Position numbers and translations under genes: made by a program
Notes under the pieces: model-generated
What the model was told of the DNA's origin: nothing
Databases searched by the model: none
The model's input: the letters and a program-made list of their open reading frames with translations, nothing else
Part shown: positions 2,638 to 61,788 of the stretch, piece after piece
Layout: every line of letters begins with the position of its first letter
Position numbering within the stretch: position 1 is the first letter of the stretch
Origin: an uncultured Clostridia bacterium
GTDB lineage: Bacteria; Bacillota; Clostridia; Oscillospirales; Ruminococcaceae
Direction of reading: 5' to 3'
NCBI GenBank assembly: GCA_937891895.1
Contig: CALATN010000218.1
Location: 7,081-71,080 of the forward strand
Length of the DNA stretch: 64,000 nt

Positions 2638-2666
2638 TTGACAAGTATTAGGCAAATTGATATAAT
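2638..2666 (+). promoter_or_regulatory. sigma-A type promoter of the ABC-like locus (TTGACA-17-TATAAT)
   Basis: Perfect consensus hexamers with a 17-nt spacer, in an AT-rich spacer. It lies about 215 nt upstream of the first gene. Confidence 0.65.
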
Positions 2667-2882
2667 AATTATACAACTCTATATATTTTTATTAGTGGAT
2701 AACATAATTTTTGTGTAATTATCACTAAACTTACACATTGAACTTGTATGGTTTGCACTGTTTTTGTGCTGTTTAAACTACCAATACCCACATATTGGTA
2801 ATGCAAAACTGCGCCTCAGTGCCTTTTTTGCGTGTGCAAATTATCGGTTTTGAGTTAGGTTATATGAAAGGTGGTCTATCTG

Positions 2883-5798
2883 TTGTCAAGGAAAACGAAT
2901 TTTAAAAGGACTCTGTCTGCGGCACTTGCAGTTCTCCTTTGTGTTTCTGTAATTCCTGCTTTCCCTGCGTTTGCGGAAAGTGAGCCTGTCAAGACTACTG
3001 CTGAAGCGCAGTACACTGAGGCTGCTCTTGCTTTCGAAAAGCAGAAAACTTACAGCGAATACTTTGATGAAATTGTAAATGTCAAGCGCCCGAATGCTGA
3101 GGCAATGCTCACTTACTCAGGTAAGAGCGACAATGCCGAAGCCGAAGTGACAACCTTCGAGGGCAAGGATAATGTTTTGGTATGGTCAAACGAAGAAGGC
3201 CGTATCGATTATACTGTTGAGGTTCCGCAAACAGGTGCATATCAGCTGGAGGTAAGCTATTACCCGCTTGAGGATGGCGCAAGCACTACTGAGCTTTCCG
3301 TTCTTCTCGACGGTGTTTCTCCGTATGATACTGCTACCCGTGCTACTCTCCCGCATATCTGGACAAGTGAATACCCTATTTCTACTGACTCTAAGGATAA
3401 CGAAGTCCGTCCTCCTCAGGTACAGGCGGCAAGATGGGTTAAAACTATGGTTTACGATGTGGACGGTCTGTTCAATGACCCTCTCTACTTCGTTCTCGAG
3501 GAAGGTACCCATACTATTTCCTTTGAGTCTGAACGTGCGTCTGTTGCTATTGAGTATATCAAGCTTTGCAATACTGACGGTGCAAAGACTTATACAAAGC
3601 CTTCCGATGCTGAGCTTGCAAAGAACAGCGGTGCTGAGCCAATCAGACTTCAGGGCGAACAGTATGCTTATACAAACTCTCAGACTTTGTTCCCTACATA
3701 CGACAGAGGTTCTTACCTTACTGAACCTTCCCATCCGTCCAAACAGCGCTACAATACAGTAGGTGACGGTACTTGGGATACTGCAGGTCAGGCAATTACC
3801 TGGGAAATGGATGTTGCCGTTGCAGGTTATTACAAAATTGGTATCAAGGCTCGTCAGAACGAGCTCCGTGGTCTTTATACAAACCGCCGTCTGCTTATTG
3901 ACGGTGAAGTGCCGAATGAAGCGTTTGAACAGCTGAAATTTATGTATGATGATGACTGGATTATGGTTGTTCCTGAAGATGCAAACGGTGAGGCCGCTTA
4001 CGTTTATCTTGACAAGGGCAAGCACGAGCTTTCTCTTGAGGTAATCCCTGGCGAAATTGGCGAATCTATGAGAAGACTGGATGAAATCGTGTACACGGCA
4101 AACCAGTACTATATGCAGATTCTTATGATTACCGGCCCTACACCTGACAAGTATACTGACTACTATATTCATAAGGAAATTCCTGAAATTCAGGACGTTT
4201 TCACTGAGCTTGCTGCTCAGCTTATTGAAGAAAAGGATAATATTGAAGGCCTTGCAGGTCAGAAGGGTACAGAAGCTGCTGCTCTGGAAAGACTTGCTAC
4301 TGTTCTTGAAAAGGCAGCTGATAAGCCTACAAAAATTCCTGATATGATTTCCAACAACTCCATCAAGGATAACGTTAACTCCGTTTCTTCCTGGATGCGT
4401 CAGTACCGTGAACAGCCTCTTGAAATTGACTTTATTGAGCTTGTTCCTGCTGATGGTGAGTTTACTTCTGTAAAATCAAATATCTTCAAGAGCTTCGGCT
4501 TCGGCTGTAAGGGCTTTGTCAACTCTTTCTTTGAAGACTATACACAGCTTTCCGATATCGAAGGCGACTCTATCAATGTATGGGTTTCTTCAGGCCGTGA
4601 CCAGGCTAATGTTATCAAGCAGATGGTTGACTCTGACTATAACCCTGACGCTGATGTAAAGGTAGCTGTAAACCTTGTACAGGGTGCTATTATGGAAGCT
4701 GTTCTTGCCGGAAAGGGCCCTGACGTTGCTCTGTTTGTCGGAGGTGAATTCCCTGTAAACCTTGCTCTTCGTGACCTTGTTGTTCCTATGAACGATATGG
4801 AAGGCTTTGACGAGGTTATGGGCAGATTCCAGAGAAATGCTGCTGTTCAGTATACTTACGACGGCGATGTTTATGCTGTTCCTATCACACAGAGCTTCCC
4901 TATGATGTTCTATCGTAAGGATATGCTTGCTCAGGTTGGTATCAGCGAGCCTCCTGAAACATGGGAAGAACTCATCGATATGCTTCCTGCTATTCAGAGA
5001 AAGTATATGCAGCCGGGTCTTATTCTCCCGGGCGTTGTAAACGGCGTTTCCGTTTCTCCTGCAACTGAAGCAGGTCACACATTTGCTCTGCTTATGCTCC
5101 AGTCAGGTACCAACTATTACAATGAGGATCAGACTGCTACAAACTTCGATTCACAGGCTGCTGTTGATGCGTTTGCTACATGGACAGACTTCTATAATGT
5201 ATATAAGTTTGACCAGACTTACGACGCATTTACACGTTTCAGAACAGGTGAATCTCCTATTGTTATCCAGAACTACTGTACTTTCTACAATCAGCTGAAT
5301 GTTGCCGCTCCTGAAATCAAGGGTCTGTGGGACTTCTGTGCTGTACCTGGTACAGAAAGAGCTGACGGTACTATTTCCCACGCTTCCAACTCCAATGGTG
5401 CGGGTGCTATCATCCTCTCCAGCTGTGATGACCAGGAAGCTGCATGGGAGTTCATCAAGTGGTTTACCGAAAAGGAAACAATGGTTGAATATGCACAGAA
5501 CGTTGAAGGCGTAATGGGTCCTCTCGGTCGTGTTGACGTTGCAAATACTGAGGCGCTTCAGGAGCTTAACTGGTCCAACAGAGATCTTGAAAAGATTATG
5601 TATCAGATGGATCAGCTCGAGGAAATTCCTATCGTTCCTTCCGCATATGTTGTAACACGAAGCATTATGAACGCATTCAGAGCTGTTGTTAACGACAAGG
5701 AAAATGCGAGAGAAACACTCCGTTGGTACAACATTGATATCAACCGCGAAATCACAAGAAAACGAGAAAATCTCGGACTTGATGAAAAAGAAGAATAA
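2883..5798 (+). CDS. extracellular solute-binding protein (CUT1-type ABC) fused to a ~520-aa N-terminal extension with two beta-sandwich/CBM-like repeats
   Basis: The ORF is open from GTG 2871. TTG 2883 has better RBS spacing (AAAGGTGG). Signal peptide ...LSAALAVLLCVSVIPAFPAFA. The C-terminal ~440 aa has family-1 SBP character (INVWVSSGRDQANVIKQMV...GKGPDVALF...WEELIDMLP). Confidence 0.8.
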   Translation: MSRKTNFKRTLSAALAVLLCVSVIPAFPAFAESEPVKTTAEAQYTEAALAFEKQKTYSEYFDEIVNVKRPNAEAMLTYSGKSDNAEAEVTTFEGKDNVLVWSNEEGRIDYTVEVPQTGAYQLEVSYYPLEDGASTTELSVLLDGVSPYDTATRATLPHIWTSEYPISTDSKDNEVRPPQVQAARWVKTMVYDVDGLFNDPLYFVLEEGTHTISFESERASVAIEYIKLCNTDGAKTYTKPSDAELAKNSGAEPIRLQGEQYAYTNSQTLFPTYDRGSYLTEPSHPSKQRYNTVGDGTWDTAGQAITWEMDVAVAGYYKIGIKARQNELRGLYTNRRLLIDGEVPNEAFEQLKFMYDDDWIMVVPEDANGEAAYVYLDKGKHELSLEVIPGEIGESMRRLDEIVYTANQYYMQILMITGPTPDKYTDYYIHKEIPEIQDVFTELAAQLIEEKDNIEGLAGQKGTEAAALERLATVLEKAADKPTKIPDMISNNSIKDNVNSVSSWMRQYREQPLEIDFIELVPADGEFTSVKSNIFKSFGFGCKGFVNSFFEDYTQLSDIEGDSINVWVSSGRDQANVIKQMVDSDYNPDADVKVAVNLVQGAIMEAVLAGKGPDVALFVGGEFPVNLALRDLVVPMNDMEGFDEVMGRFQRNAAVQYTYDGDVYAVPITQSFPMMFYRKDMLAQVGISEPPETWEELIDMLPAIQRKYMQPGLILPGVVNGVSVSPATEAGHTFALLMLQSGTNYYNEDQTATNFDSQAAVDAFATWTDFYNVYKFDQTYDAFTRFRTGESPIVIQNYCTFYNQLNVAAPEIKGLWDFCAVPGTERADGTISHASNSNGAGAIILSSCDDQEAAWEFIKWFTEKETMVEYAQNVEGVMGPLGRVDVANTEALQELNWSNRDLEKIMYQMDQLEEIPIVPSAYVVTRSIMNAFRAVVNDKENARETLRWYNIDINREITRKRENLGLDEKEE

Positions 5799-5818
5799 CT
5801 TGATTGGAGGGGAAACCT

Positions 5819-6784
5819 TTGGCTGCTGAAACTCAGAAGAAGGAAATCTTGCTGCCTAATGAGCGAAAGATGTCCTTTAAAGAAAGATGGGCTTATACCT
5901 GGCACGAAATGAAGAGAAACAAGATGTGTTATCTTATGCTGGCACCTTTTATGGTTTTCTTCATCGTGTTCACTGTAATTCCCGTTTGTATGTCACTGCC
6001 TATCGGCTTCACTGATTTCGATATGGCACACTTCCCGCCGAAGTTTGTCGGCTTCCAGAACTTCTATACAATGTTCCTCGAAGACGACGTATTCATCGGC
6101 GCTATCAGAACAACACTTATCTTTGCTATCTTTACAGGTCCGCTCAGCTATGTGCTCAGCTTCTTCCTTGCTTGGCTCATCAACGAGCTTCATCCTGTAC
6201 TCAAGACAGTATTTACACTTATTTTCTACGCACCATCAATGGCAGGTAACATCTACTTCGTATGGCAGCTCATCTTCTCGGGCGATACATACGGTTACCT
6301 CAATGCTGCACTTACTTCTCTCGGTATCACAACAGCTGCTGTTCAGTGGCTTACTGACGCGAACTATGTGCTTGTCTGCGTAATCATCGTTCAGCTGTGG
6401 GTATCTATGGGTGCAGGCTTCCTTGCTATGCGTGCAGGCTTCCAGGGTATCGACAAGGCGATGTATGAAGCAGGTGCTATCGAAGGTATCAGCAACAGAT
6501 GGCAGGAGCTTATCTTCATTACAATCCCTTCAATGGGTCCTCAGCTCATGTTTGCTGCTGTAATGCAGATCGTATCCGCATTTACTGTTGATATCGTAGG
6601 ACGTAGCCTCGCAGGCTTCCCGTCCACAGACTATAAGGTTCATACCATTATGACTCACGCTTTCGACTACGGTTGGATCCGTTACGAAATGGGTTATTCT
6701 TCCGCAATATGCTTTGTCCTGTTCCTTGTAATGCTGATTTGTAACAATCTCATAGGCAAGCTTCTGGGCAAGTACATGAACTAA
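5819..6784 (+). CDS. carbohydrate ABC transporter permease (MalF/BPD_transp_1 type), pair 1
   Basis: Multi-TM protein with EAA loop EAGAIEGISNRWQELIFITIPSMGP. The ORF is open from TTG 5804. TTG 5819 sits 6-8 nt after GGAGGGG, and ATG 5870 is also possible. Confidence 0.8.
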   Translation: MAAETQKKEILLPNERKMSFKERWAYTWHEMKRNKMCYLMLAPFMVFFIVFTVIPVCMSLPIGFTDFDMAHFPPKFVGFQNFYTMFLEDDVFIGAIRTTLIFAIFTGPLSYVLSFFLAWLINELHPVLKTVFTLIFYAPSMAGNIYFVWQLIFSGDTYGYLNAALTSLGITTAAVQWLTDANYVLVCVIIVQLWVSMGAGFLAMRAGFQGIDKAMYEAGAIEGISNRWQELIFITIPSMGPQLMFAAVMQIVSAFTVDIVGRSLAGFPSTDYKVHTIMTHAFDYGWIRYEMGYSSAICFVLFLVMLICNNLIGKLLGKYMN

Positions 6785-6806
6785 GAAACGAGGTGAGGAA
6801 TACATA

Positions 6807-7778
6807 ATGGCTAAAAAAGAACTGAAGCCTTCTCAGATTGCGGCTCAGATTGAGGCTGAAAATGCCGCTGCGCTTGAGGCTCTGAGAAAAAGGCGTGAAA
6901 AAGAGCATGCTAAGATGGAAAAGTCCAAGGGTACCAACAAGCAGGTTGGTAAGAGCTGGAAAAACGATATCGGTATTTTCCTCTTCCTTACATTCCTCGG
7001 TGCGTTCATGCTTCTCCCTATCTACATCGCAATCGTTACATCTATCAAGCCGGTAAATGAAATCTTCATTATGCCGCCTCGTCTTTATGCGATGGACCCT
7101 ACTTTTGACAACTTCAAGGACCTTTTCGTTGTTGCAAACAACTCATGGGTTCCTTTCTCAAGAAACGTATTCAACAGTATCTTCGTTACTGTTGCAGCAA
7201 CAGTTCTTCACGTTCTGTTTGCTTGTACAGCAGGCTTCGTACTTGCTAAGTGCAGATTCCCTGGCGCAAAGGCAATCAACAAGGTTGTTGTAATTGCCCT
7301 CCTTTTCAGCAGCCAGGTAACCTACATCATGCAGTACATCGTTATGGCTAAGCTGGGTATGATCAATACATACTCCGCGCTCATTCTTCCTCTTATCGCT
7401 TCCTCTATGGGTCTTTACCTTATGATTCAGAGCGTTAGTACAATCCCTGACGCTATGATTGAAGCGTCAAAGGTTGACGGCGCAGGTCTTATGCGTATAT
7501 GCTGGGGTATCGTAATGCCGAACTCCAAGCCTGCGGTTATGACAATTATCATCTTCCAGTTCCAGGCGGCTTGGAACTCCAACGGCGGTTCACTCGTATA
7601 TGATGAAGCGCTCAAGACAATTCCTACTGTTGTTCAGCAGATTGCTGCAGCAGGTATTGCACGTCAGGGTGCGATTGCGGCTTCCGCGGTTGTACTTATG
7701 ATTCCGCCGCTTGCTATCTTCATTGCTGCCCAGAGTAACGTTATGGAAACTATGGCGCACGCCGGAATGAAAGACTAA
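6807..7778 (+). CDS. carbohydrate ABC transporter permease (MalG type), pair 1, with charged ~55-aa N-terminal extension
   Basis: RBS GAGGTGAGG. EAA loop EASKVDGAGLMRICWGIVMPNSKP. Six hydrophobic segments. Confidence 0.85.
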   Translation: MAKKELKPSQIAAQIEAENAAALEALRKRREKEHAKMEKSKGTNKQVGKSWKNDIGIFLFLTFLGAFMLLPIYIAIVTSIKPVNEIFIMPPRLYAMDPTFDNFKDLFVVANNSWVPFSRNVFNSIFVTVAATVLHVLFACTAGFVLAKCRFPGAKAINKVVVIALLFSSQVTYIMQYIVMAKLGMINTYSALILPLIASSMGLYLMIQSVSTIPDAMIEASKVDGAGLMRICWGIVMPNSKPAVMTIIIFQFQAAWNSNGGSLVYDEALKTIPTVVQQIAAAGIARQGAIAASAVVLMIPPLAIFIAAQSNVMETMAHAGMKD

Positions 7779-7871
7779 AAAATCTGCGATTTTTTGGTCT
7801 GAGAGATATCCGCATTGTTTATATGAAATGCAATCCGGAACTGATTTTAATTTGAATTATGGAGGGATAAT

Positions 7872-9377
7872 ATGTCAGGCTTGAAAAAGCTTATTTCGCT
7901 TATTTCAGCGGCGGCAATCAGTATTTCCGTGCTTGCGGTAAATACCTCCGCGCTGGAAACATATGACCCTTACAGCTATGACAGATGGGGTGACGCCGTT
8001 TCTTCACAGGCAGGCTACACCGCTGAAAAATACGTGGACGGAAATACGATCGGCTGCGGCTCTCTGAATGAGCCTGCTGACCTGTACATTTCCCACGACA
8101 ACCTTATGTACATAGCAGATAAGGGCAACAACAGAATCGTGGTTACTGACCTCGATTTCAACTTCAAGAAAGAGATGAAGGAATTCTCCTACAAGGATGA
8201 AAAGCTTACTCTTGCAAAGCCAACAGGCGTTTATGTTGACCAGTACACAGGCTACATCTATATCTGTGATACAGAAAATGACCGTGTTATCAAGTGCGAT
8301 ACAGACGGTAAGGTTGACAGACTTTTTGAAAAGCCAACGGATGCACTTTATGACCAGGCTCTTACTTATAATCCGAGCAAGGTTCTTGTCGACAAGGCAG
8401 GCAACGTTTATGTTGTTGTTAAGTCACAGACAAAGGGTGCTGTAATGTTCAACTCTCAGGGTGATTTCCTTGGCTTCTACGGTGCAAACCGAGTTGAACA
8501 GACTGCTGAGGTTCTCGCAAACGCTTTCTGGAAGATTTTCTCCACAGAGAAACAGAGAGACCGTATGACAAAACAGACTCCTATCGGCTTCTCAAACTTT
8601 GATATTGACGATGATGGCTTCATCTATACAGTTACAGATTCTCAGGAAACTACAACTGACCTTGTTAAGAAGCTCAATCCAAGAGGTAACAATATTATCG
8701 ACTCTCTCGGTGTTGCTGATATGCAGTTCGGTGATAATCCTCCTGCTTACTATTCAATCTATTCCAAGAATTCCAGCCTTACCGACATTGACCTCGGTCC
8801 TAACGGCGAGCTGAATATTCTTGACTTCCAGCATGGCCGTATTTTCCAGTACGACAAGGAATGCTGGCTGCTGTTCATTGTCGGCGGCAAGGGCAATCAG
8901 CTTGGTCTGTTTGAGTCCGCTACCGCAATTGAAAGCTACGACAATCACCTTTATGTTGTTGACTCCATCAAGGACAACATCACAATCTTTACAAGAACAG
9001 TTTTCGGTGAAATTGTTACCGACGCTGCTAACCTTTACAATGACGGTCTTTACGAGGAATCTCTTGAGCCGTGGCAGAATGTTCTGAAGTATGACGGTAA
9101 CTACCGCCGTGCTTACATCGGTATCGGTAACGCACTCTACAACAAGTATGAGTACGAGGAAGCTATGGAATACTTTGAAATTTCCATCAGCCGTGACCGA
9201 TACAACAAGGCATTTGAGGGCTACAGAGATATCTGGCTCAAGGAAAACTATATGAAGTGCCTCATTGTTATTGCTGTACTTGTAATTCTTGGTTTCGTCT
9301 ATAAGCATTTCCGCAAGAAGGGCAAGATTGTTTACCCTTGGGAAAATCGCCGCAGAGGCAGAAGGGGTGGTGTGTAA
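7872..9377 (+). CDS. secreted NHL-repeat beta-propeller protein with TPR-like segment and C-terminal membrane anchor
   Basis: Signal peptide LISLISAAAISISVLAVNTSA. NHL-like repeats (MYIADKGNNRIVVTD, IYICDTENDRVIKCD, LYVVDSIKDNITIF). TPR-like YIGIGNALYNKYEYEEAMEYFE. C-terminal TM CLIVIAVLVILGFVY followed by an R/K tail. Confidence 0.7.
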   Translation: MSGLKKLISLISAAAISISVLAVNTSALETYDPYSYDRWGDAVSSQAGYTAEKYVDGNTIGCGSLNEPADLYISHDNLMYIADKGNNRIVVTDLDFNFKKEMKEFSYKDEKLTLAKPTGVYVDQYTGYIYICDTENDRVIKCDTDGKVDRLFEKPTDALYDQALTYNPSKVLVDKAGNVYVVVKSQTKGAVMFNSQGDFLGFYGANRVEQTAEVLANAFWKIFSTEKQRDRMTKQTPIGFSNFDIDDDGFIYTVTDSQETTTDLVKKLNPRGNNIIDSLGVADMQFGDNPPAYYSIYSKNSSLTDIDLGPNGELNILDFQHGRIFQYDKECWLLFIVGGKGNQLGLFESATAIESYDNHLYVVDSIKDNITIFTRTVFGEIVTDAANLYNDGLYEESLEPWQNVLKYDGNYRRAYIGIGNALYNKYEYEEAMEYFEISISRDRYNKAFEGYRDIWLKENYMKCLIVIAVLVILGFVYKHFRKKGKIVYPWENRRRGRRGGV

Positions 9378-9378
9378 T

Positions 9379-10008
9379 ATGCTGGATTTGACAAGAGGAC
9401 AGTTCGTTAAACACGTAATTACTCACCCTTTTGAGGGCTTTGAGGATCTCCGCTGGAAAAAAGCGGGCTCTATGGGAATTGCATTCTTCGTAGTATGCCT
9501 CCTTTTTGTTCAGCAGGTTGCTTACAGCAGACTTTACGGTTTCCAGTATTACTCTGATTATGATAAGATTTTTAATATTGTACCTTACATTTTCAAGAGT
9601 TTTATTCTCTTTGGTACATGGGTAGTTGCTAACTGGGCAATGTGTACTCTCTTTGACGGAGAGGGCACAATGAAGAATATCTTCATCAACTCAGCTTATG
9701 CGCTTATCCCTTACATTTCAGGTTATCTTATCGGTACAGTAATGTCCCATTTCCTTATTCAGGACGAATACGTATTTATCCAGGCTATCGAAATCATCGG
9801 TACTTGCTGGAGCTTCGTTCTTCTTATTTCGGGAATAAAGGCTGTACACCAGTTCACATTCGGAAAGACAATAGCGCTGATGCTGCTGACTATTGTGGCA
9901 ATGATTGCTATTCTGTTCCTGCTCGTACTTCTTCTTACACTGTTCCAGCAGGTACTTATCTTTATTCTTTCCATCTACACAGAACTGTCTTACAGGTTCA
10001 GAGTTTAA
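9379..10008 (+). CDS. Yip1-domain-like multi-pass membrane protein
   Basis: ATG 9379 lies 1 nt after the upstream stop. About five hydrophobic helices follow a short cytoplasmic N-terminus (MLDLTRGQFVKHVITHPFEGFEDLRWKK). The family assignment is from memory of similar loci. Confidence 0.6.
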   Translation: MLDLTRGQFVKHVITHPFEGFEDLRWKKAGSMGIAFFVVCLLFVQQVAYSRLYGFQYYSDYDKIFNIVPYIFKSFILFGTWVVANWAMCTLFDGEGTMKNIFINSAYALIPYISGYLIGTVMSHFLIQDEYVFIQAIEIIGTCWSFVLLISGIKAVHQFTFGKTIALMLLTIVAMIAILFLLVLLLTLFQQVLIFILSIYTELSYRFRV

Positions 10009-10040
10009 AATACTAAAAACGAAAAGTGGTGAAATAACGA

Positions 10041-12338
10041 ATGCAGAAAAGGTTTAAAAAGCTGATTGCCTGCCTTTGCTGTCTGGCTATGATGGTTCCG
10101 CTGTGCGCTTTCCCTGCAACTGCTGAGGACGCACCTGCAACTGAAGAAGCTGCTGCTTCCGAGGAAGCTGCTGAATCAGGGGAAACATATGCTATGGACC
10201 CTGAGGAACCTCTGATTACAGATGAACAGGCATTGGCTGAAATGGAGCTTGCTACTGAAAACAGTAAAATGGCTCTGTACTACAATAAAAAGGGTCAGAT
10301 TGCTCTTGTTGATAAGGCAACAGGAGAAGTATGGTGGTCTAACCCTATAAATGTTGACGCTGCGGCAGGTAAGGCTGCTCAGAAGACAAAGCTGAAGTCC
10401 TCTATGTCTATGACTTTCGCTCAGCCTTCAAAGAGAAGCACTACTGCACAGAACAGCTCAGACCAGAAGGTTAAGTGCAAAATCAAGGTAAAGAAGAATT
10501 CTGACGGACTCGACATTACCTATGATTACGGCAACGCAGAAATTTCCGTTCCTGTAAAGGTTACTCTCAAGGACGACTACCTCAGCGTAAGCGTTGACAC
10601 AGCAGGAATTGTTGAAAGCAACAGCGATAAGATTGTAACAAACCTTATTATGATGGGTGCTTTCGGTGCTGCTGAGCCTGATGAAACAGGCTATTTCGTT
10701 ATTCCTGACGGAAGCGGCGCACTTATCAACTTCAACAACAATAAGATGAACTACAAGACTTACAAGGGTCAGGTTTACGGCAGAAATGTTACAGTTGTTG
10801 AAACAACAAAGCCTGCTGTAACTCAGAACGTTTATCTTCCTATGTACGGCATCGTTAAGGGCAACAGCGGTATGATGGTTGTTGCTGACAAGGGCGATAC
10901 TTGTGCAACAATCAATGCGTACACAAGAGGTCAGGAAAAGACCAGTTACAACGCTTGTTATTTTGATTTCGAAATCAGAACAGATGACGAATACCTTATG
11001 GGCGGCGACGCTAACCCGCTTGCCGTTTATGAAAAGAGAGGCATTCTTGTTCCTGAAATCGAGGTAAGATACTACCCTGTATCCAATTCCGACAAGTCTG
11101 AAGTTGACTATGTTGATATCGCAGATACATACAGAGATTACCTTACAAAGGAACAGGGCGTTACAAAGTCCGCAGCTGCTGACAAGTCTGCTCTCTATGT
11201 TGACTTTTACGGTGCTGTTATGAAGCAGGAAACTGTTCTCGGTCTTCCTGTTATGATGCAGCACGAAACAACCTCCTTCGAGGAAGCAAAGACAATCCTT
11301 GAAAAGCTCAAGGAGCTTGGTGTTGATGATATCGTTGCAAACTATAATCAGTGGACAACTGACGACATCAAGGAAAAGGTTGCAGATGACGCTAAGCCTG
11401 CTTCAAAGCTTGGCGGCAAGAAGGATTTCAAGGCGCTCAAGGCTTATGCTGAAGAAAACGGTATTGCTCTTTATCCTGCTGTTGATAACCTTACATTCGA
11501 GTCAGGCAACGGTTATTTCACAATGACCGATACAGCAATCAGAGTTTCCAATGCTTACTCCAGACAGATTGAATACGACCTCAACCACGGTGTTGAAAAC
11601 AAGTTCTATGACGCAATTTCCCTTCTCAGCCCAAGAAAGTATGAGAAGATGTTCAAGAGCCTTACCAAGAGCTACTCCAAGGCAGGTATTGACAATATTT
11701 CTCTGGGCAGTGCCACAACCGTTATCTACGGCGACTATGGCAAGAAGTCCGTTTCAAGAGAAATGTTCAAGTACAACCTCCAGAGCTACCTCGAAGAAAT
11801 GAAGGGTTCAATCGGTTCAATTCTTGCAGACGGAGCAAATGCTTACGTTCTCAAGTATGTTGACCACGTTTCGAATATTCCTCTCAACTCCAGCAAGTTT
11901 GATATTTTTGATCAGGAAATTCCTTTCTATCAGATTGTTATGAGCGGTGTAAAGCCTGTTTCCACAACTGCTGTAAACGGCGACGCTCAGGTTGCTGAGC
12001 TTGTTCTCCGTGCAATTGCATCAGGAACAAACCTCAGATTTGACCTTCTTGCTGAAACTGCTGACGAGTTGAAGGATACACGTTACGACAAGTATTACTA
12101 CGCTAACTATGAGTACTGGGTTGAAGATGCTGCTGCTTGCTACAAGTTTGCTGATGAAATTCTTTCCAAGACCGCGGGCTCAACAATTACCGAATACAAT
12201 GTTCTTTCCGAAACAAAGATTGAAACAGTTTACGAAAACGGCACAAAGACAATTGTTGACCTTGAAGCAAGAACTGTTGATGTAAACGGTAAAAAGGTAA
12301 GCATTTATGACTACATCGGAAAGGAGGTAATCGGCTGA
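10041..12338 (+). CDS. large secreted protein, DUF5696-like (possible glycoside-hydrolase-like fold)
   Basis: Signal peptide KLIACLCCLAMMVPLCAFPATA followed by an acidic linker. 765 aa with no catalytic motif I can name. The family assignment is from recollection of co-occurrence with Yip1 and ABC genes. Confidence 0.6.
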   Translation: MQKRFKKLIACLCCLAMMVPLCAFPATAEDAPATEEAAASEEAAESGETYAMDPEEPLITDEQALAEMELATENSKMALYYNKKGQIALVDKATGEVWWSNPINVDAAAGKAAQKTKLKSSMSMTFAQPSKRSTTAQNSSDQKVKCKIKVKKNSDGLDITYDYGNAEISVPVKVTLKDDYLSVSVDTAGIVESNSDKIVTNLIMMGAFGAAEPDETGYFVIPDGSGALINFNNNKMNYKTYKGQVYGRNVTVVETTKPAVTQNVYLPMYGIVKGNSGMMVVADKGDTCATINAYTRGQEKTSYNACYFDFEIRTDDEYLMGGDANPLAVYEKRGILVPEIEVRYYPVSNSDKSEVDYVDIADTYRDYLTKEQGVTKSAAADKSALYVDFYGAVMKQETVLGLPVMMQHETTSFEEAKTILEKLKELGVDDIVANYNQWTTDDIKEKVADDAKPASKLGGKKDFKALKAYAEENGIALYPAVDNLTFESGNGYFTMTDTAIRVSNAYSRQIEYDLNHGVENKFYDAISLLSPRKYEKMFKSLTKSYSKAGIDNISLGSATTVIYGDYGKKSVSREMFKYNLQSYLEEMKGSIGSILADGANAYVLKYVDHVSNIPLNSSKFDIFDQEIPFYQIVMSGVKPVSTTAVNGDAQVAELVLRAIASGTNLRFDLLAETADELKDTRYDKYYYANYEYWVEDAAACYKFADEILSKTAGSTITEYNVLSETKIETVYENGTKTIVDLEARTVDVNGKKVSIYDYIGKEVIG

Positions 12339-13273
12339 TGACAAGTCTTCGCAATATGTCCTATGAAAAGAAAAAGGGTCTTTATGGCTACGGCTTTATC
12401 GCACTCTGGTTTATCGGTGCACTGATGTTCTTCATCATCCCGCTGTTTGAGTCGTTTTACTACTCCTTTCATGAAGTAACACCTGAAACAGGTTATATGA
12501 ATATCAAGCCGCTGGTTGAAAGATTCGGCGGTGAGGAAAAGACAAACATTTTCCTTAACTATAAGAACGCTTTTATGACTGACCCTAACTACCGTCAGTA
12601 CCTTATTGAGGTTCTCGGTGATATGGCGCTCAATCTCCCGATTATCGTAATCTTCTCGCTTTTTGTAGCGATTATCATCAATCAGAAGTTCAAGGGAAGA
12701 ACTTTTGCAAGAGCTGTATTCTTCCTCCCTGTAATCATTGCAACAGGTCCTGTTTATGCAATCATCACAGGCGACCTTGACACAGGAGGAAACAGCGATG
12801 CTGCTCAGTTCTCCACAATGTTTGAGGCCGATATGGTTGACCAGCTGCTGGAATTTATAGGTGTATACGGTTTTGGTACGAAATTCACAGAGCTGCTTAC
12901 AACAATTACTTCCGACATCCTTAACCTTGTTTGGAAGTGTGGTATTCAGATTCTTATCTTCCTTTCCGCACTCCAGGGCATTCCTTCCTCTGCTAAGGAA
13001 GCTGCCGCTATCGAGGGTGCAACATCATGGGAATTCTTCTGGAAGATTACTCTTCCTTACATTTCCCCTATGATTCTCGTTAACATCGTTTATACAGTTG
13101 TTGACACATTTACTGATCCGACCAACCAGGTAATGGAACGTCTGCTCAGTGTACAGAGCGAATGGAAATACGGTTATTCCGCTGCTATGGCGTGGAGCTA
13201 CTTCGGTATTGTACTTGTAGTTCTGGGTATTATCTTCGCAGTTATGAACAAGCTCGTCTGGTACGACGATTAA
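12338..13273 (+). CDS. carbohydrate ABC transporter permease (MalF type), pair 2
   Basis: The ATG overlaps the upstream TGA (CTGATGA). EAA loop EAAAIEGATSWEFFWKITLPYISP. Confidence 0.85.
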   Translation: MTSLRNMSYEKKKGLYGYGFIALWFIGALMFFIIPLFESFYYSFHEVTPETGYMNIKPLVERFGGEEKTNIFLNYKNAFMTDPNYRQYLIEVLGDMALNLPIIVIFSLFVAIIINQKFKGRTFARAVFFLPVIIATGPVYAIITGDLDTGGNSDAAQFSTMFEADMVDQLLEFIGVYGFGTKFTELLTTITSDILNLVWKCGIQILIFLSALQGIPSSAKEAAAIEGATSWEFFWKITLPYISPMILVNIVYTVVDTFTDPTNQVMERLLSVQSEWKYGYSAAMAWSYFGIVLVVLGIIFAVMNKLVWYDD

Positions 13274-13288
13274 GGAGGGGAGAAATTT

Positions 13289-14368
13289 ATGGCATCTACA
13301 ATGGCAAAGGGTTTCTCTCCCTTCAAGAAAAAAGAGAAGGAGCCTACTCTCAGCGATGTTAAGCTGACACGTAGAGAAAAAAGAGAGCGTTTCAAGAAAA
13401 GACTTGAATGCCTCACTCCTGAGGAACAGAGATATCTGAAGCGTAAGCAGTTTATGGATGCGGTATGGCCTGTGTTCAGAGCAGTAATCGTATTTGGTCT
13501 TTGCTTCATCATTCTTTATCCTCTTATCTTCATGGTTTCCACAGCAATCCGTACAAGAGCGGATATGAATGACCCTACAGTAATGTGGATTCCAAAGCAT
13601 GTTACGTTTACAAACATTACTGACGTTGTAAAGGCGATTAACTTCTGGGATATTCTCGGCAACACCCTTGTTCTTAACATTGGCTGTTCCATAATTCAGG
13701 TTATTACCTGTGCAATCACAGGCTACGGCTTTGCACGTTACGAATTCAAGGGCAAGAAGCTTCTGTTCTTCATTGTAATTTTGATGATTCTTGTTCCGCC
13801 GCAGATTATTCTTATTCCTCAGTATAAGTTCTTCCGTTACTTCAATCCACTGGGTATCTGGAAGCTTATCACAGGAAGCACAATCAGCCTTATCGATACA
13901 CCGCTTACAATGTATCTCCCTGCGTTGACTGCAAATGGTCTGCGTGCAGGTCTGTTCATATTCCTGTTCAGACAGTCCTTCAAGGGCTTACCTAAGGAGC
14001 TTGAGGACGCAGCTGCACTTGACGGCTGTACACCTCTTGAAACCTTCATTAAGGTAATGATTCCTAACGCAGGCTCTACATTCCTTACAGTATTCCTGTT
14101 CTCAATTGTTTGGTACTGGAATGACTATTACGTATCAACATCGTTCTTTGTTAACAACAAGACGATTGCGCTGGAGCTCAAGAACCTGGATACAAACCTC
14201 AAGGTTCTCCTCTTCGGTGATGCTAATGCACAGGTTAACATCCGTGAGCTTATCGTATGGATGGAATCCGCTTGTCTGATTTCCATTCTGCCGATACTCG
14301 TGCTGTATGTTTGCTTGCAGAAGCACTTCACAGAAGGTATCGCACGTTCCGGTCTTACAGGTATGTAA
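13289..14368 (+). CDS. carbohydrate ABC transporter permease (MalG type), pair 2, with basic ~60-aa N-terminal extension
   Basis: RBS AAGGAGGGG. EAA loop DAAALDGCTPLETFIKVMIPNAGS. N-terminus is KKKEKEPTLSDVKLTRREKRERFKKRLE. Confidence 0.85.
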   Translation: MASTMAKGFSPFKKKEKEPTLSDVKLTRREKRERFKKRLECLTPEEQRYLKRKQFMDAVWPVFRAVIVFGLCFIILYPLIFMVSTAIRTRADMNDPTVMWIPKHVTFTNITDVVKAINFWDILGNTLVLNIGCSIIQVITCAITGYGFARYEFKGKKLLFFIVILMILVPPQIILIPQYKFFRYFNPLGIWKLITGSTISLIDTPLTMYLPALTANGLRAGLFIFLFRQSFKGLPKELEDAAALDGCTPLETFIKVMIPNAGSTFLTVFLFSIVWYWNDYYVSTSFFVNNKTIALELKNLDTNLKVLLFGDANAQVNIRELIVWMESACLISILPILVLYVCLQKHFTEGIARSGLTGM

Positions 14369-14370
14369 AA

Positions 14371-14401
14371 TACAAAACAAAAGCAGAGCTTTTGTTTTGT
14401 A
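14371..14401 (+). terminator. intrinsic terminator 1 of ABC-like locus
   Basis: 14-bp stem TACAAAACAAAAGC / GCTTTTGTTTTGTA. Confidence 0.75.
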
Positions 14402-14404
14402 TCC

Positions 14405-14440
14405 AAGAATCAGAAAGCTTATGCTTTCTGATTCTTTTTT
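14405..14440 (+). terminator. intrinsic terminator 2 (tandem)
   Basis: 14-bp stem AAGAATCAGAAAGC / GCTTTCTGATTCTT followed by TTTTT. Confidence 0.85.
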
Positions 14441-18738: not shown

Positions 18739-21663
18739 ATGAGTAAAGTGTATTCACTGGGTATCGACGTAGGTTCAACGACAGTTAAAACGGTCATTCT
18801 TGACGATAACAGCGAGATAATCCGTTCACGCTATCAGCGCCATTTTTCCAAGGTAAGAGAAACGGTTGCGGAGCAGCTGGAGGAAATCGCAAATGAATAT
18901 TCGGGCTGTGAGTTCCGTTTAAGCATTACGGGCTCGGCAGGTCTTGGTCTTGCAAATGCGGCAGGTCTGCCTTTTGTGCAGGAGGTTTTCGGTGCGTTTA
19001 TCGCAGTAAATCACAGCTACCCCGACGCTGACGTTGTAATCGAGCTTGGCGGTGAGGACGCTAAAATCATCTTCCTGACTGGCGGCGTTGAACAGCGTAT
19101 GAACGGCTCCTGTGCAGGCGGTACAGGTGCGTTTATCGACCAGATGGCTACACTTCTCGGTATTACAACTGACGAAATGGACAATATGGCACTGAAGGCG
19201 GAGAAGCTTTATCCTATCGCTTCACGCTGCGGTGTTTTTGCTAAATCCGACATCCAGCCTTTGCTCAATCAGGGCGCAAAGCGCGAGGATATCGCCGCTT
19301 CAATTTTCCAGGCGGTAGTTGACCAGACAGTTTCGGGTCTTGCTCAGGGACGTGAAATCAAGGGAAAGGTTCTTTTCCTCGGCGGTCCTCTCTCTTTCCA
19401 GAAGGGTCTGCGCAAGGCTTTCGTGAACAGCCTCAAGCTTTCCGACGAGAATGCAATCTTCCCCGAAAATGCGCCTTGCTTTATGGCTTTCGGCTGTGCG
19501 CTCCACGCTAAGGAGTCCAGCGAGCCTATGGCAATTGACGAGGTTATCGAAAGAGTTAAAACAGCAAAGGCGAGCGACGACATCGTAACAGGCGAGCCGC
19601 TGTTTACCTCAAAGGAAGAATACAACAAGTTCGTTGACCGTCACAAGGCTTGTGACCTCAAATATGCTGATATCAATACCTACGAGGGCGAGGCTTACCT
19701 CGGTATCGACGCAGGCTCAACAACCACAAAGCTTGTGCTTATCACACCAAAGGGTGAGCTTCTTTATCAGCACTACTGCTCCAGTATGGGCAGACCGCTC
19801 GACATTATTTCCTCAAAGCTGAAGGAAATCTACAGTCTGACAGGCAACAGAATTACTATTGCTTCTTCTGCTGTAACAGGCTACGGTGAAGACCTCATCA
19901 AGGCTGGTCTTGGCATTGACAACGGTATCGTTGAAACCGTTGCACACTACAAGGCGGCAAGCTTCTTTGAGCCTGAGGTTGACTTCATTATCGACATCGG
20001 CGGTCAGGATATCAAGTGCTTCAAAATCAAGAACAAGGCTATCGACAGCATTATGCTCAACGAGGCTTGTTCCTCGGGATGCGGCTCATTTATCCAGACT
20101 TTTGCGCTTGCTCTCGGCTACGATATTGCTGAATTTTCTCAGCTTGGACTTTTTGCTGAACGTCCTGTTGACCTTGGCTCACGCTGTACAGTATTTATGA
20201 ACAGCTCCGTTAAGCAGGCACAGAAGGACGGCGCTTCCGTTGAGGATATTTCCGCAGGTCTTTCCGCTTCTATCATCAAGAACGCAATCTACAAGGTAAT
20301 CCGTGCTAAGTCTACGGACGAGCTTGGCAAGCATATCGTTGTTCAGGGCGGTACGTTCCTTAACGATGCAGTGCTCCGTTCCTTTGAGCTTGAGCTTGGC
20401 AGAAACGTTGTACGTCCTGCAATTGCTGGTCTTATGGGCGCATTCGGCTGTGCGCTTTATGCAATGGAAAACCGTAAGGAAAAGTCCACGCTTATTCCCG
20501 CAGAACAGCTTGAAAACTTTACATACTCCGCAAAGCAGATCAACTGTAACGGCTGTACCGCACACTGCGGTCTTACCGTTATCACCTTTGCTGACGGCCA
20601 CAAATTCATCAGCGGAAACCGCTGTGAAAAGGGTGCAGGCATAAAGGTGGACGGCGAAAAACTTTGTCTTTACGAATACAAATACAACCGCCTGCTCAGC
20701 GTTGTGGAGGAAAAGCCTGCACAGCCAAAGGCCAAGGTTGGTCTGCCGCTTTGCCTCGGCTTCTATGAGCAGCTTCCTTTCTGGCACAGAGCACTTACAG
20801 ACCTTGGTTTTGAAGTTATTATCAGCGAGGAAAGTACCCGTGACATCTACTACAAGGGTCAGCATACAATTCCATCCGATACGGTTTGTTACCCCGCAAA
20901 GCTTGCTCACGGCCATATTCTCAGCCTGCTTGAGCGCGGCGCAGATTTCATTTTCTACCCATGTGAAAGCTACAACATCGACGAGGGTCAGAGTGACAAC
21001 CACTACAACTGTCCTGTTGTTGCGTACTATCCTGAGCTGTTGAAGGCTAATACAAACGAGCTTAACGATGACAACTTCCTCCACCCGTATATCGACATCA
21101 ACCTTGAAAAGCACTTTGCCGAAGCAATGAGCAAGTCCCTTGCAAAGTACGGCGTAACAAAGGCGCAGGCAAAGGCTGTATGGGCCAAGTCCATGGAAGC
21201 TATGGAAAGCTACCGCAAGGACGTTGTGAAGAAGGGCGAGGAAATTATCGAAAAGGCAAGAGCAAAGAATATGCCGATTATTGTCCTTTCGGGACGTCCT
21301 TACCATATCGACCCCGAAATCAACCACGGTATCCAGAAGCTTATCACAAGTCTGGGACTCGCTGTTATCACAGAGGACAGCGTTGCTCACCTTGCAGATA
21401 CACCAACACTTACCGTACTTAACCAGTGGACTTATCATTCACGTCTTTACCGTGCCGCTAAGTACGTTACAACACAGCCCGATATGCAGCTTGTACAGCT
21501 TGTTTCATTCGGCTGCGGTATCGATGCTATCACAACCGACGAGGTGCGTTCAATCCTCGAAGACGGCGGCAAGCTCTATACACAGCTTAAAATCGACGAA
21601 ATCAATAACCTCGGCGCAGCTAAAATCAGACTCAGGAGTCTGGTTGCCGCAATGTCGAAGTAA
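18739..21663 (+). CDS. CoA-substrate-specific enzyme activase-like protein (two BadF/BadG/BcrA/BcrD-type ATPase domains + Cys cluster + DUF2229-like C-terminal domain)
   Basis: Two copies of the acetate/sugar-kinase-fold N-terminus (LGIDVGSTTVKTVIL and LGIDAGSTTTKLVLI). Cys motif CNGCTAHC...GNRCEKG. 974 aa. Confidence 0.75.
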   Translation: MSKVYSLGIDVGSTTVKTVILDDNSEIIRSRYQRHFSKVRETVAEQLEEIANEYSGCEFRLSITGSAGLGLANAAGLPFVQEVFGAFIAVNHSYPDADVVIELGGEDAKIIFLTGGVEQRMNGSCAGGTGAFIDQMATLLGITTDEMDNMALKAEKLYPIASRCGVFAKSDIQPLLNQGAKREDIAASIFQAVVDQTVSGLAQGREIKGKVLFLGGPLSFQKGLRKAFVNSLKLSDENAIFPENAPCFMAFGCALHAKESSEPMAIDEVIERVKTAKASDDIVTGEPLFTSKEEYNKFVDRHKACDLKYADINTYEGEAYLGIDAGSTTTKLVLITPKGELLYQHYCSSMGRPLDIISSKLKEIYSLTGNRITIASSAVTGYGEDLIKAGLGIDNGIVETVAHYKAASFFEPEVDFIIDIGGQDIKCFKIKNKAIDSIMLNEACSSGCGSFIQTFALALGYDIAEFSQLGLFAERPVDLGSRCTVFMNSSVKQAQKDGASVEDISAGLSASIIKNAIYKVIRAKSTDELGKHIVVQGGTFLNDAVLRSFELELGRNVVRPAIAGLMGAFGCALYAMENRKEKSTLIPAEQLENFTYSAKQINCNGCTAHCGLTVITFADGHKFISGNRCEKGAGIKVDGEKLCLYEYKYNRLLSVVEEKPAQPKAKVGLPLCLGFYEQLPFWHRALTDLGFEVIISEESTRDIYYKGQHTIPSDTVCYPAKLAHGHILSLLERGADFIFYPCESYNIDEGQSDNHYNCPVVAYYPELLKANTNELNDDNFLHPYIDINLEKHFAEAMSKSLAKYGVTKAQAKAVWAKSMEAMESYRKDVVKKGEEIIEKARAKNMPIIVLSGRPYHIDPEINHGIQKLITSLGLAVITEDSVAHLADTPTLTVLNQWTYHSRLYRAAKYVTTQPDMQLVQLVSFGCGIDAITTDEVRSILEDGGKLYTQLKIDEINNLGAAKIRLRSLVAAMSK

Positions 21664-61729: not shown

Positions 61730-61788
61730 TATAAATTCGTCCTTTCTTGGATTTGAAACCGCCTTTTTCAAGGCAATAAACCTCACTT

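Follow-up and report, generated by a model that had tools for sequence, protein, structure and literature searches.

The importers of carbohydrate uptake transporter family 1 (CUT1; TC 3.A.1.1) are ATP-binding cassette (ABC) systems whose canonical composition is one solute-binding protein (SBP) and one permease pair. In the CUT1 systems of Firmicutes one MsmK/MsmX ATPase is commonly shared and is often encoded elsewhere. Also of relevance are the Gram-positive polysaccharide utilization loci (gpPUL), in which a dedicated regulator and recognised carbohydrate-active enzymes (CAZymes) lie beside the transporter. The locus described here is an eight-gene operon in a stretch of 64,000 nucleotides (the window) of contig CALATN010000218.1, from an uncultured gut Clostridia bacterium of the Ruminococcaceae (assembly GCA_937891895.1). 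The operon encodes, in order, a giant SBP (g1), a permease pair (g2 and g3), an NHL-TPR protein (g4), a Yip1-domain membrane protein (g5), a secreted DUF5696 protein (g6) and a second permease pair (g7 and g8).

This cassette is an uncharacterised, widespread and architecturally fixed elaboration of the CUT1 sugar importer and of the Gram-positive PUL. It departs from the canonical composition in all loci, with one SBP, two permease pairs and three extra genes. An earlier note, made from the letters of the window alone, had seen in it an undescribed system with a layout unlike that of a standard sugar importer operon, and both statements stand: full-text literature searches, whose scope excludes subscription-only papers and supplementary tables, returned no description of DUF5696 or of the cassette. 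On a modest balance of probability, the operon is an ancient fixed module for the capture, trimming and import of glycans, with an ATPase supplied from elsewhere.

Gene order and encoded proteins

A scan of one genome per species gave at least 573 confirmed stretches encoding a DUF5696 relative, and the best 80 were kept. These 80 loci belong to Oscillospiraceae, Ruminococcus or Huintestinicola metagenome-assembled genomes (MAG), and their DUF5696 proteins are 42-87% identical to g6. Together with L001 and L002 (72% DUF5696 identity) and with L083-L089, which were sampled from more distant representatives (identity down to 27%) and include Paenibacillus sp. IITD108, Paenibacillus kobensis and a Lachnospiraceae MAG, they make up the 89 loci compared. 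The order SBP-permease-permease-NHL-Yip1-DUF5696-permease-permease is identical in every sufficiently long locus of this set, with the exception of the degenerate-looking L065. The cassette consequently spans two Firmicutes classes, Clostridia and Bacilli, with carriers in Oscillospiraceae, Ruminococcus, Lachnospiraceae and Paenibacillus, and the fixed multi-component unit proposed in the earlier note is borne out by the gene-order comparison that it had called for. The invariant order across the 89 loci therefore identifies the cassette as an ancient, fixed module. Dandekar et al. reportedly regarded, in 1998, gene order kept over a long range as a signature of physically interacting products.

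All eight genes have one-to-one positional orthologues in Paenibacillus (identities in Table 1). Within the Oscillospiraceae, conservation is highest in the permeases and Yip1 (57-98%) and lowest in DUF5696, NHL and SBP. Every DUF5696 gene examined lies within a cassette; the family comprises 4,274 clusters at 50% identity (E <= 1e-3). In L065 (2993-14015, Oscillospiraceae MAG AnMBR.bin308), g1, g2, g3, g7 and g8 appear fragmented, either in a decaying copy or through an assembly error.

An indication of glycan processing comes from g6. This protein matches Pfam DUF5696 (PF18952) over model positions 3-612 of 612 (5e-162, 541 bits against a cut-off of 25.6) and consists of a signal peptide, an acidic disordered linker, an N-terminal beta-sandwich, a (beta/alpha)8 barrel and a C-terminal beta-sandwich. 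A signal peptide is present in all DUF5696 homologues examined, and some carry lipoboxes or FIVAR modules. The AlphaFold2 (AF2) model of g6 has a predicted local distance difference test score (pLDDT) of 92 and a predicted template modelling score (pTM) of 0.90. Foldseek places it, with probability 1.0, next to the 3,6-anhydro-D-galactosidase ZgGH129 (E = 2e-30) and the alpha-N-acetylgalactosaminidase NagBb (E = 1e-24, target template modelling score (TMt) 0.71-0.74), with an overall TMt of 0.65-0.74 for glycoside hydrolase (GH) family GH129. The GH101 endo-alpha-N-acetylgalactosaminidases follow at E about 1e-18, and GH31, GH36 and GH97 rank lower. The model reproduces the three-domain arrangement of GH129 and GH101, and the predicted structure of g6 is that of the retaining glycosidases of these two families.

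The acidic residues conserved across DUF5696 are D223 (100%), E192 (91%), D565 (90%) and D624 (97%). D223 sits in an invariant PDGSG loop of the N-terminal sandwich, and D565 and D624 lie in the barrel region, where no conserved Glu is present. With these residues, a catalytic role of DUF5696 is putative.

The binding protein g1 matches the Pfam families SBP_bac_1 and SBP_bac_8 (6e-24 and 9e-29), the type of binding protein that serves CUT1 importers. In its AF2 model (mean pLDDT 80) an N-terminal helix, predicted to act as an anchor or, with an AFA/E site, as a signal peptide, is followed by a disordered linker, by beta-sandwiches at about 77-229 and 254-388, by a helical bundle (390-509) and by a two-lobed CUT1 binding domain (564-963). 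Foldseek aligns the binding domain with oligosaccharide-binding CUT1 proteins at TMt up to 0.81, including binders of cyclic maltosyl-maltose, sophoro-oligosaccharides, maltodextrin and cycloisomalto-oligosaccharides, and a sequence search of the PDB also matches oligosaccharide SBPs. The extension of about 510 residues that precedes this domain is conserved, with dozens of invariant positions from the window to Paenibacillus. It gives a weak match to the carbohydrate-binding module (CBM) family CBM_35 of Pfam (2e-06, 28.5 bits against a gathering cut-off of 28). Precomputed PF16990 matches exist in many g1 homologues, and the N-terminal profile weakly matches the CBM35 modules of CITase (1e-4) and CsxA (0.05). 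A lipobox, the absence of which is unusual for a Gram-positive SBP, is missing from g1 and is found in 4 of 118 homologues.

All four permeases match UgpA/MalF-type or UgpE/MalG-type models and carry EAA loops in their translations (EAGAIEG in g2, EASKVDG in g3, EAAAIEG in g7 and DAAALDG in g8), in agreement with the two MalFG-type translocons that the earlier note had read from these motifs. The NCBIfam matches are to UgpA for g2 (4.5e-17) and UgpE for g3 (1.5e-27); g7 matches Pfam BPD_transp_1 and NCBIfam UgpA, and g8 matches BPD_transp_1 (1.4e-14). SugB, AlgM2 and MalG are the nearest solved chains of both g3 and g8. Judged by their sequences, g2, g3, g7 and g8 are canonical transmembrane domains (TMDs) of type-I importers that would form two translocons, and the MalF-type plus MalG-type heterodimer of CUT1 systems is represented twice, by g2/g3 and by g7/g8. 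The lysine-, glutamate- and arginine-rich cytoplasmic N-terminal tails that had been pointed out in g3 and g8 do precede the first transmembrane (TM) segment, with about 55 and 60 residues, and are shorter or missing in distant orthologues. The two pairs are 20-21% identical to each other, and a recent duplication is rejected on this ground. Since each gene of the window has its own positional orthologue in Paenibacillus, both pairs go back to the ancestor that all cassettes have in common.

The genes between the first pair and g6 encode two membrane proteins. By Pfam and TM prediction, g4 is exported by a signal peptide and built of NHL repeats and TPRs; a C-terminal TM segment (454-482) anchors it, with a basic tail on the cytoplasmic side. 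Its matches in the PDB are the PknD sensor propeller, the Pizza designs and consensus TPR proteins; among solved propellers, the PknD sensor domain and the designs derived from it are the nearest. The multi-pass membrane protein g5 matches Pfam Yip1 (4.7e-17). Separate genes encode the two proteins in the window, in P. kobensis and in Lachnospiraceae. In the metagenomic lineage L083 (7863-9986) and in Paenibacillus sp. IITD108 (L084, 7884-9977) they are fused into single NHL-TPR-Yip1 proteins of 697 and 707 aa, so g4 and g5 are two halves of one functional unit. The three accessory envelope proteins listed in the earlier note are accordingly better described as one split membrane protein (g4 and g5) and one protein with a predicted glycosidase fold (g6). 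In Bacillus, the Yip1-family protein YknW modulates the assembly of the ABC transporter YknXYZ (PMC4887032), and by analogy NHL-TPR-Yip1 may act as a membrane scaffold or assembly factor.

Transcription unit and genomic surroundings

The eight open reading frames (ORF) are co-directional and tightly packed on the + strand, with a promoter at the 5' end and a tandem terminator at the 3' end (Table 1). The single consensus promoter and double terminator that the earlier note had placed around them are both recovered, the first as a complete match and the second as two hairpins. The promoter is the top-scoring site in a scan of the region and is kept in the orthologous loci L001-L022; the same scan found no internal consensus promoter or terminator. 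Both hairpins of the terminator are perfect. Hairpin 1 (14370-14402) is AT-rich, and a U run follows hairpin 2 (14405-14436); the folding energy of the two together is -37 kcal/mol (z = -12.2 against shuffles).

Table 1. Coordinates of the cassette in the window and of associated genes in other loci; identity is to the Paenibacillus orthologue
Feature	Locus	Position	Strand	Identity	Basis or remark
Promoter, sigma-70-type, TTGACA-17-TATAAT, TG extended -10	window	2638..2666	+		12/12 positions
5' leader, ~216 nt	window	2667..2882	+		alignment of upstream regions
g1, giant solute-binding protein, 971 aa	window	2883..5798 (ORF from 2871)	+	34-40%	
g2, MalF/UgpA-type permease, pair 1	window	5804..6784 (ORF; probable TTG start 5819, 321 aa)	+	50-55%	
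g3, MalG/UgpE-type permease, pair 1	window	6807..7778	+	46-47%	
g4, NHL beta-propeller and TPR protein	window	7872..9377	+	35%	
g5, Yip1-domain membrane protein, 209 aa	window	9379..10008 (ORF from 9289)	+		
g6, secreted DUF5696 protein, 765 aa	window	10041..12338	+	28-32%	
g7, MalF/UgpA-type permease, pair 2	window	12338..13273	+	36%	
g8, MalG/UgpE-type permease, pair 2	window	13289..14368	+	38-44%	
Tandem hairpin terminator	window	14370..14436	+		folding vs shuffles
GH95 gene	L017	14368-16650			
GH95 gene	L001	14398-16695	-		L001 also has GH130
Extra lipoprotein SBP, 420-460 aa	L085	1668-3059			
Extra lipoprotein SBP, 420-460 aa	L087	14199-15548			
Extra lipoprotein SBPs, 420-460 aa	L088	14188-15462, 15546-16811			

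The spacers from g1 to g8 are, in order, 5 (or 20), 22, 93, 1, 32, -1 and 15 nt. The TTG start of g1 (2883) is preceded by AAAGGTGG, and both the start and this ribosome-binding site are conserved across all orthologous upstream regions. The probable TTG start of g2 has a GGAGGGG site ahead of it. The start of g5 is placed at ATG 9379, one base past the stop of g4, because the resulting 209 aa is the length found in every relative. The stop of g6 and the start of g7 overlap in TGATG, and most of the examined loci retain an overlap or a close coupling at this junction.

Within the leader, the alignment of upstream regions reveals a conserved, operator-like near-palindrome, GTGTAATTATCAC (2713-2725). 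A second conserved operator-like palindrome, TTAAACGTTT (2571-2582), with a LacI/CcpA-like AACGTT core, precedes the -35 hexamer by about 55 bp. Both suggest that the operon may be controlled by a regulator encoded elsewhere. A riboswitch or leader RNA is rejected: Rfam families give zero matches anywhere in the window, and the leader does not fold better than its shuffles (z = -1.15). The relative synonymous codon usage (RSCU) of the operon correlates with that of 35 other genes of the window (r = 0.93) and shows a stronger bias, with CCC, GTG, ACG and TCG nearly avoided, in line with the well-expressed native type noted earlier. Codon usage and GC content are native, and a foreign origin of the locus is rejected.

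The cassette of the window has a surface protein gene upstream and thyA, folA, Sir2 (sirtuin) and nadC downstream, and for this reason no regulator is adjacent to it. The upstream gene g0 (840-2387, + strand) encodes a secreted protein of 515 aa with no Pfam match and an acidic stalk rich in E and V. Its C-terminus has an NPTTGN motif, then a TM segment and KKRS, and resembles a sortase sorting signal. This gene has its own terminators (2467-2499 and 2507-2528) and, in closer relatives only, is kept directly ahead of the cassette at 27-54% identity.

In other lineages the surroundings differ. AraC or two-component regulators, or plain housekeeping genes, flank the cassette elsewhere; the dedicated regulator and recognised CAZymes of a Gram-positive PUL are present in some lineages and absent from the flanks in the window. 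GH95, an alpha-L-fucosidase/galactosidase family represented here by intracellular proteins without signal peptide, lies directly downstream in 35 of 69 counted loci whose downstream flank reaches 2.6 kb or more, some truncated loci being counted imprecisely, and these 35 belong to one Oscillospiraceae subclade. The search for a co-varying glycoside hydrolase, which the earlier note had recommended, consequently ends without a universal partner: GH95 is rejected as such, being absent from the window, its closest relatives, the Ruminococcus clade and Paenibacillus. The other variable neighbours are GH130, GH32, GH123, GH42-like, GH43, GH10 and GH27 proteins, GDSL esterases and pectate-lyase-like proteins. 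The variable neighbours, GH95 included, and the carrier taxa point to oligosaccharides of plant or host glycans in general as a possible substrate.

No gene with both Walker A and LSGGQ is found in any frame of the 64-kb window, the operon included, for which the earlier note had already stated as much. An ABC-ATPase-like ORF is present in the flanks of 3 of 86 loci and none is of MalK size, and an ATPase near the cassette is rejected as a general feature. The lack of a consistently adjacent ATPase gene in related loci fits a shared MsmK-type ATPase, as had been expected. In L089, a Ruminococcus-like MAG, two tandem LolD/MacB-type ATPase genes (1174-2779; 226 and 311 aa) precede the giant SBP gene by 91 nt. 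As a general solution for the missing ATPases they are rejected, since their orthologues lie near no other cassette.

Additional SBPs adjoin the cassette in three distant lineages, with one or two per locus (Table 1). They form a single family of lipoproteins (25-31% mutual identity), of which the window holds no homologue, and may be the partner of the second translocon. Their position beside the cassette in three lineages makes a second SBP, encoded elsewhere, plausible for the organism of the window.

Further from the cassette, a 974-aa BcrAD/BadFG-type CoA-enzyme activase with a DUF2229 domain is encoded downstream of nadC (18739-21663). A flagellar cluster (34035-58671) encodes FliF, FliG, a FliI-type ATPase, FliK, FlgD and FlhA, which makes motility of the organism probable. 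On the - strand, 59375-61786 encodes a glycogen/maltodextrin phosphorylase, and a Walker A motif, GAVRSGKT, occurs at about 62886 (+ strand) in an ORF that continues towards the window's end.

Proposed mechanism and its alternatives

In the proposed mechanism, the CBM-like modules of g1 would hold an extracellular glycan at the cell surface, where DUF5696 would trim or cleave it; the catalytic pair may be D565 and D624, close to the invariant PDGSG loop. The binding domain of g1 would then pass an oligosaccharide to pair 1 (g2/g3), encoded directly downstream. Pair 2 (g7/g8), translationally coupled to DUF5696, would take a second product, delivered either by g1 itself or by a conventional lipoprotein SBP encoded elsewhere. 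NHL-TPR-Yip1 would serve as the membrane scaffold or assembly factor, on the analogy of YknW in YknWXYZ, and a shared MsmK/MsmX-type ATPase encoded outside the window would power both translocons. Substrate flow, the SBP of the second translocon and the physical assembly of the parts are, as we infer them, those of this outline.

The earlier note had pictured a machine for the capture, processing and import of an extracellular polymer. The processing step gains support, because DUF5696 has a GH129/GH101-like predicted fold. On the other hand, the import of a polymer is not supported, because the binding domain of g1 resembles oligosaccharide-binding proteins. The single binding protein holds for the window and fails in the lineages where lipoprotein SBPs adjoin the cassette; likewise, the absence of a regulator is true of the adjacent genes and is qualified by the conserved operator-like palindromes. 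The cassette thus probably serves capture, processing and import, and a polymeric substrate, a single SBP and a lack of regulation are not established.

Several observations weigh against a module for glycan capture, trimming and import. The kinship of DUF5696 with GH129 and GH101 is revealed only by profile and predicted fold: the identity in the Foldseek alignments is 11-14%, phmmer of g6 against the PDB gives nothing at E <= 10, and at the same threshold Pfam yields DUF5696 alone, with no GH129 or GH101 match even below the cut-offs. A profile of 67 diverse DUF5696 members gives short and weak matches to GH129/GH101 enzymes, and by sequence similarity g6 does not fall within these families. 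Moreover, the barrel of GH129 and GH101 holds a catalytic Asp nucleophile and a Glu acid/base; the barrel region of DUF5696 conserves only Asp, so the protein could be non-catalytic. The absence of a lipobox leaves the surface retention of g1 without explanation. The physical association of the parts is suggested by gene order and one type of fusion only, and the flanking CAZymes, which differ by lineage, may be unrelated neighbours. In the window itself the cassette lies among housekeeping genes, as it does in many other loci, with no other CAZyme nearby and a promoter that looks constitutive; with such a setting and promoter, a core envelope function fits as well as nutrient uptake.

This last point leads to the alternative that the module serves to recycle or remodel a surface polysaccharide made by the cell itself, such as a wall glycopolymer, a capsule or an S-layer glycan, with DUF5696 freeing the fragments and the two importers recovering them. 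A perfect, conserved consensus promoter without adjacent regulator, the codon bias of well-expressed genes, the very strong conservation of the permeases between genera and the surface protein gene g0 upstream in close relatives would all suit such a housekeeping role. However, Paenibacillus and other lineages embed the cassette among catabolic CAZymes and AraC or two-component regulators, the intracellular GH95 gene follows it in about half of the counted loci, its carriers differ greatly in envelope, and CBM35-like modules with an oligosaccharide-type SBP are typical of nutrient capture. Turnover of the organism's own surface is accordingly regarded as fairly improbable. A different role for g6 alone is suggested by its place in the operon. 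DUF5696 occupies the SBP position of an SBP-permease-permease unit and is translationally coupled to g7, the window lacks a second SBP, some homologues are lipoproteins as SBPs are, and the motif of highest conservation, PDGSG with D223, belongs to the N-terminal sandwich and not to a recognisable catalytic site of the barrel. DUF5696 might then be a non-catalytic extracytoplasmic receptor that replaces the classical SBP on g7/g8, with NHL-TPR-Yip1 joining both translocons. This is very unlikely, given that the two Asp of the barrel region are conserved as in an active enzyme and that the ordinary lipoprotein SBPs of three distant lineages are natural partners of the second translocon; a non-SBP receptor is not known from any type-I ABC importer.

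A further reading is that two independent sugar importers and unrelated membrane genes became neighbours by chance or by a recent insertion. Each half does resemble a standard CUT1 unit, the pairs share only about 20% identity and the widest spacer, of 93 nt, separates g3 from g4. These features carry little weight against the same order and orientation in every adequate locus from Clostridia to Bacilli, which nearly refutes chance adjacency, against the confinement of DUF5696 genes to the cassette, the overlapping and fused genes, and the lack of an internal consensus promoter or terminator. Such an origin is barely credible. At the other extreme, all eight proteins could form one envelope supercomplex, in which the Yip1/NHL-TPR scaffold joins the two CUT1 translocons, DUF5696 is docked on the second or feeds it directly, and cleavage and import are mechanically coupled; this reading is distinctly unlikely.

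Significance and comparison with described systems

The cassette is widespread, with carriers among the fibre-degrading Oscillospiraceae, Ruminococcus and Lachnospiraceae of the gut and among the Paenibacillus of soil. Cultured Paenibacillus species carry it, and it is therefore genetically testable. Its characterisation could establish a new GH family akin to GH129 and GH101 and assign bacterial Yip1 proteins and extracellular NHL propellers a part in ABC import. It could also account for the joint retention of two translocons and reveal a major route by which abundant gut Firmicutes take up glycans. Without the supercomplex, the system stays inside the familiar paradigm of carbohydrate uptake by ABC transporters. 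If the supercomplex were real, DUF5696 would found a new glycoside hydrolase family of more than 4,000 clusters at 50% identity.

The CUT1 importers MalEFGK2, LpqY-SugABC and MsmEFGK are the closest described systems, with which the cassette shares the SBP_bac_1-type domain and the MalF/MalG-like EAA permeases. Unlike them, it has two permease pairs in one operon, a 971-aa SBP that lacks a lipobox and has a conserved extension, and NHL-TPR, Yip1 and DUF5696 genes that always lie between both pairs. The alginate importer AlgM1M2SS-AlgQ of Sphingomonas sp. A1 is likewise of the CUT1 type and handles a complex glycan, and its AlgM2 is near g3 and g8. However, it has a single permease pair, SBPs of ordinary size and its own ATPase gene, belongs to a Gram-negative bacterium and lacks Yip1, NHL or GH-like partners. 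The GH129 and GH101 enzymes are not part of a transporter cassette, whereas DUF5696 always is.

For the Yip1 component, the only precedent named is YknW, the accessory subunit of the four-component YknWXYZ system of Bacillus (PMC4887032); g5 is likewise a Yip1 protein encoded inside an ABC operon. The likeness is an analogy only, since YknYZ is an exporter of the MacB type that works with a membrane-fusion protein, whereas the cassette encodes type-I importer TMDs and no such protein. Moreover, the Yip1 protein of the cassette has a linked or fused NHL-TPR ectodomain, unlike that of YknWXYZ. Finally, gpPUL place an ABC sugar transporter beside an extracellular glycan-active protein, as the cassette does, and flanking CAZymes and regulators accompany the cassette too in several lineages. 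On the other hand, gpPUL vary in content and order and are substrate-specific, whereas the cassette keeps a fixed eight-gene core in variable surroundings.

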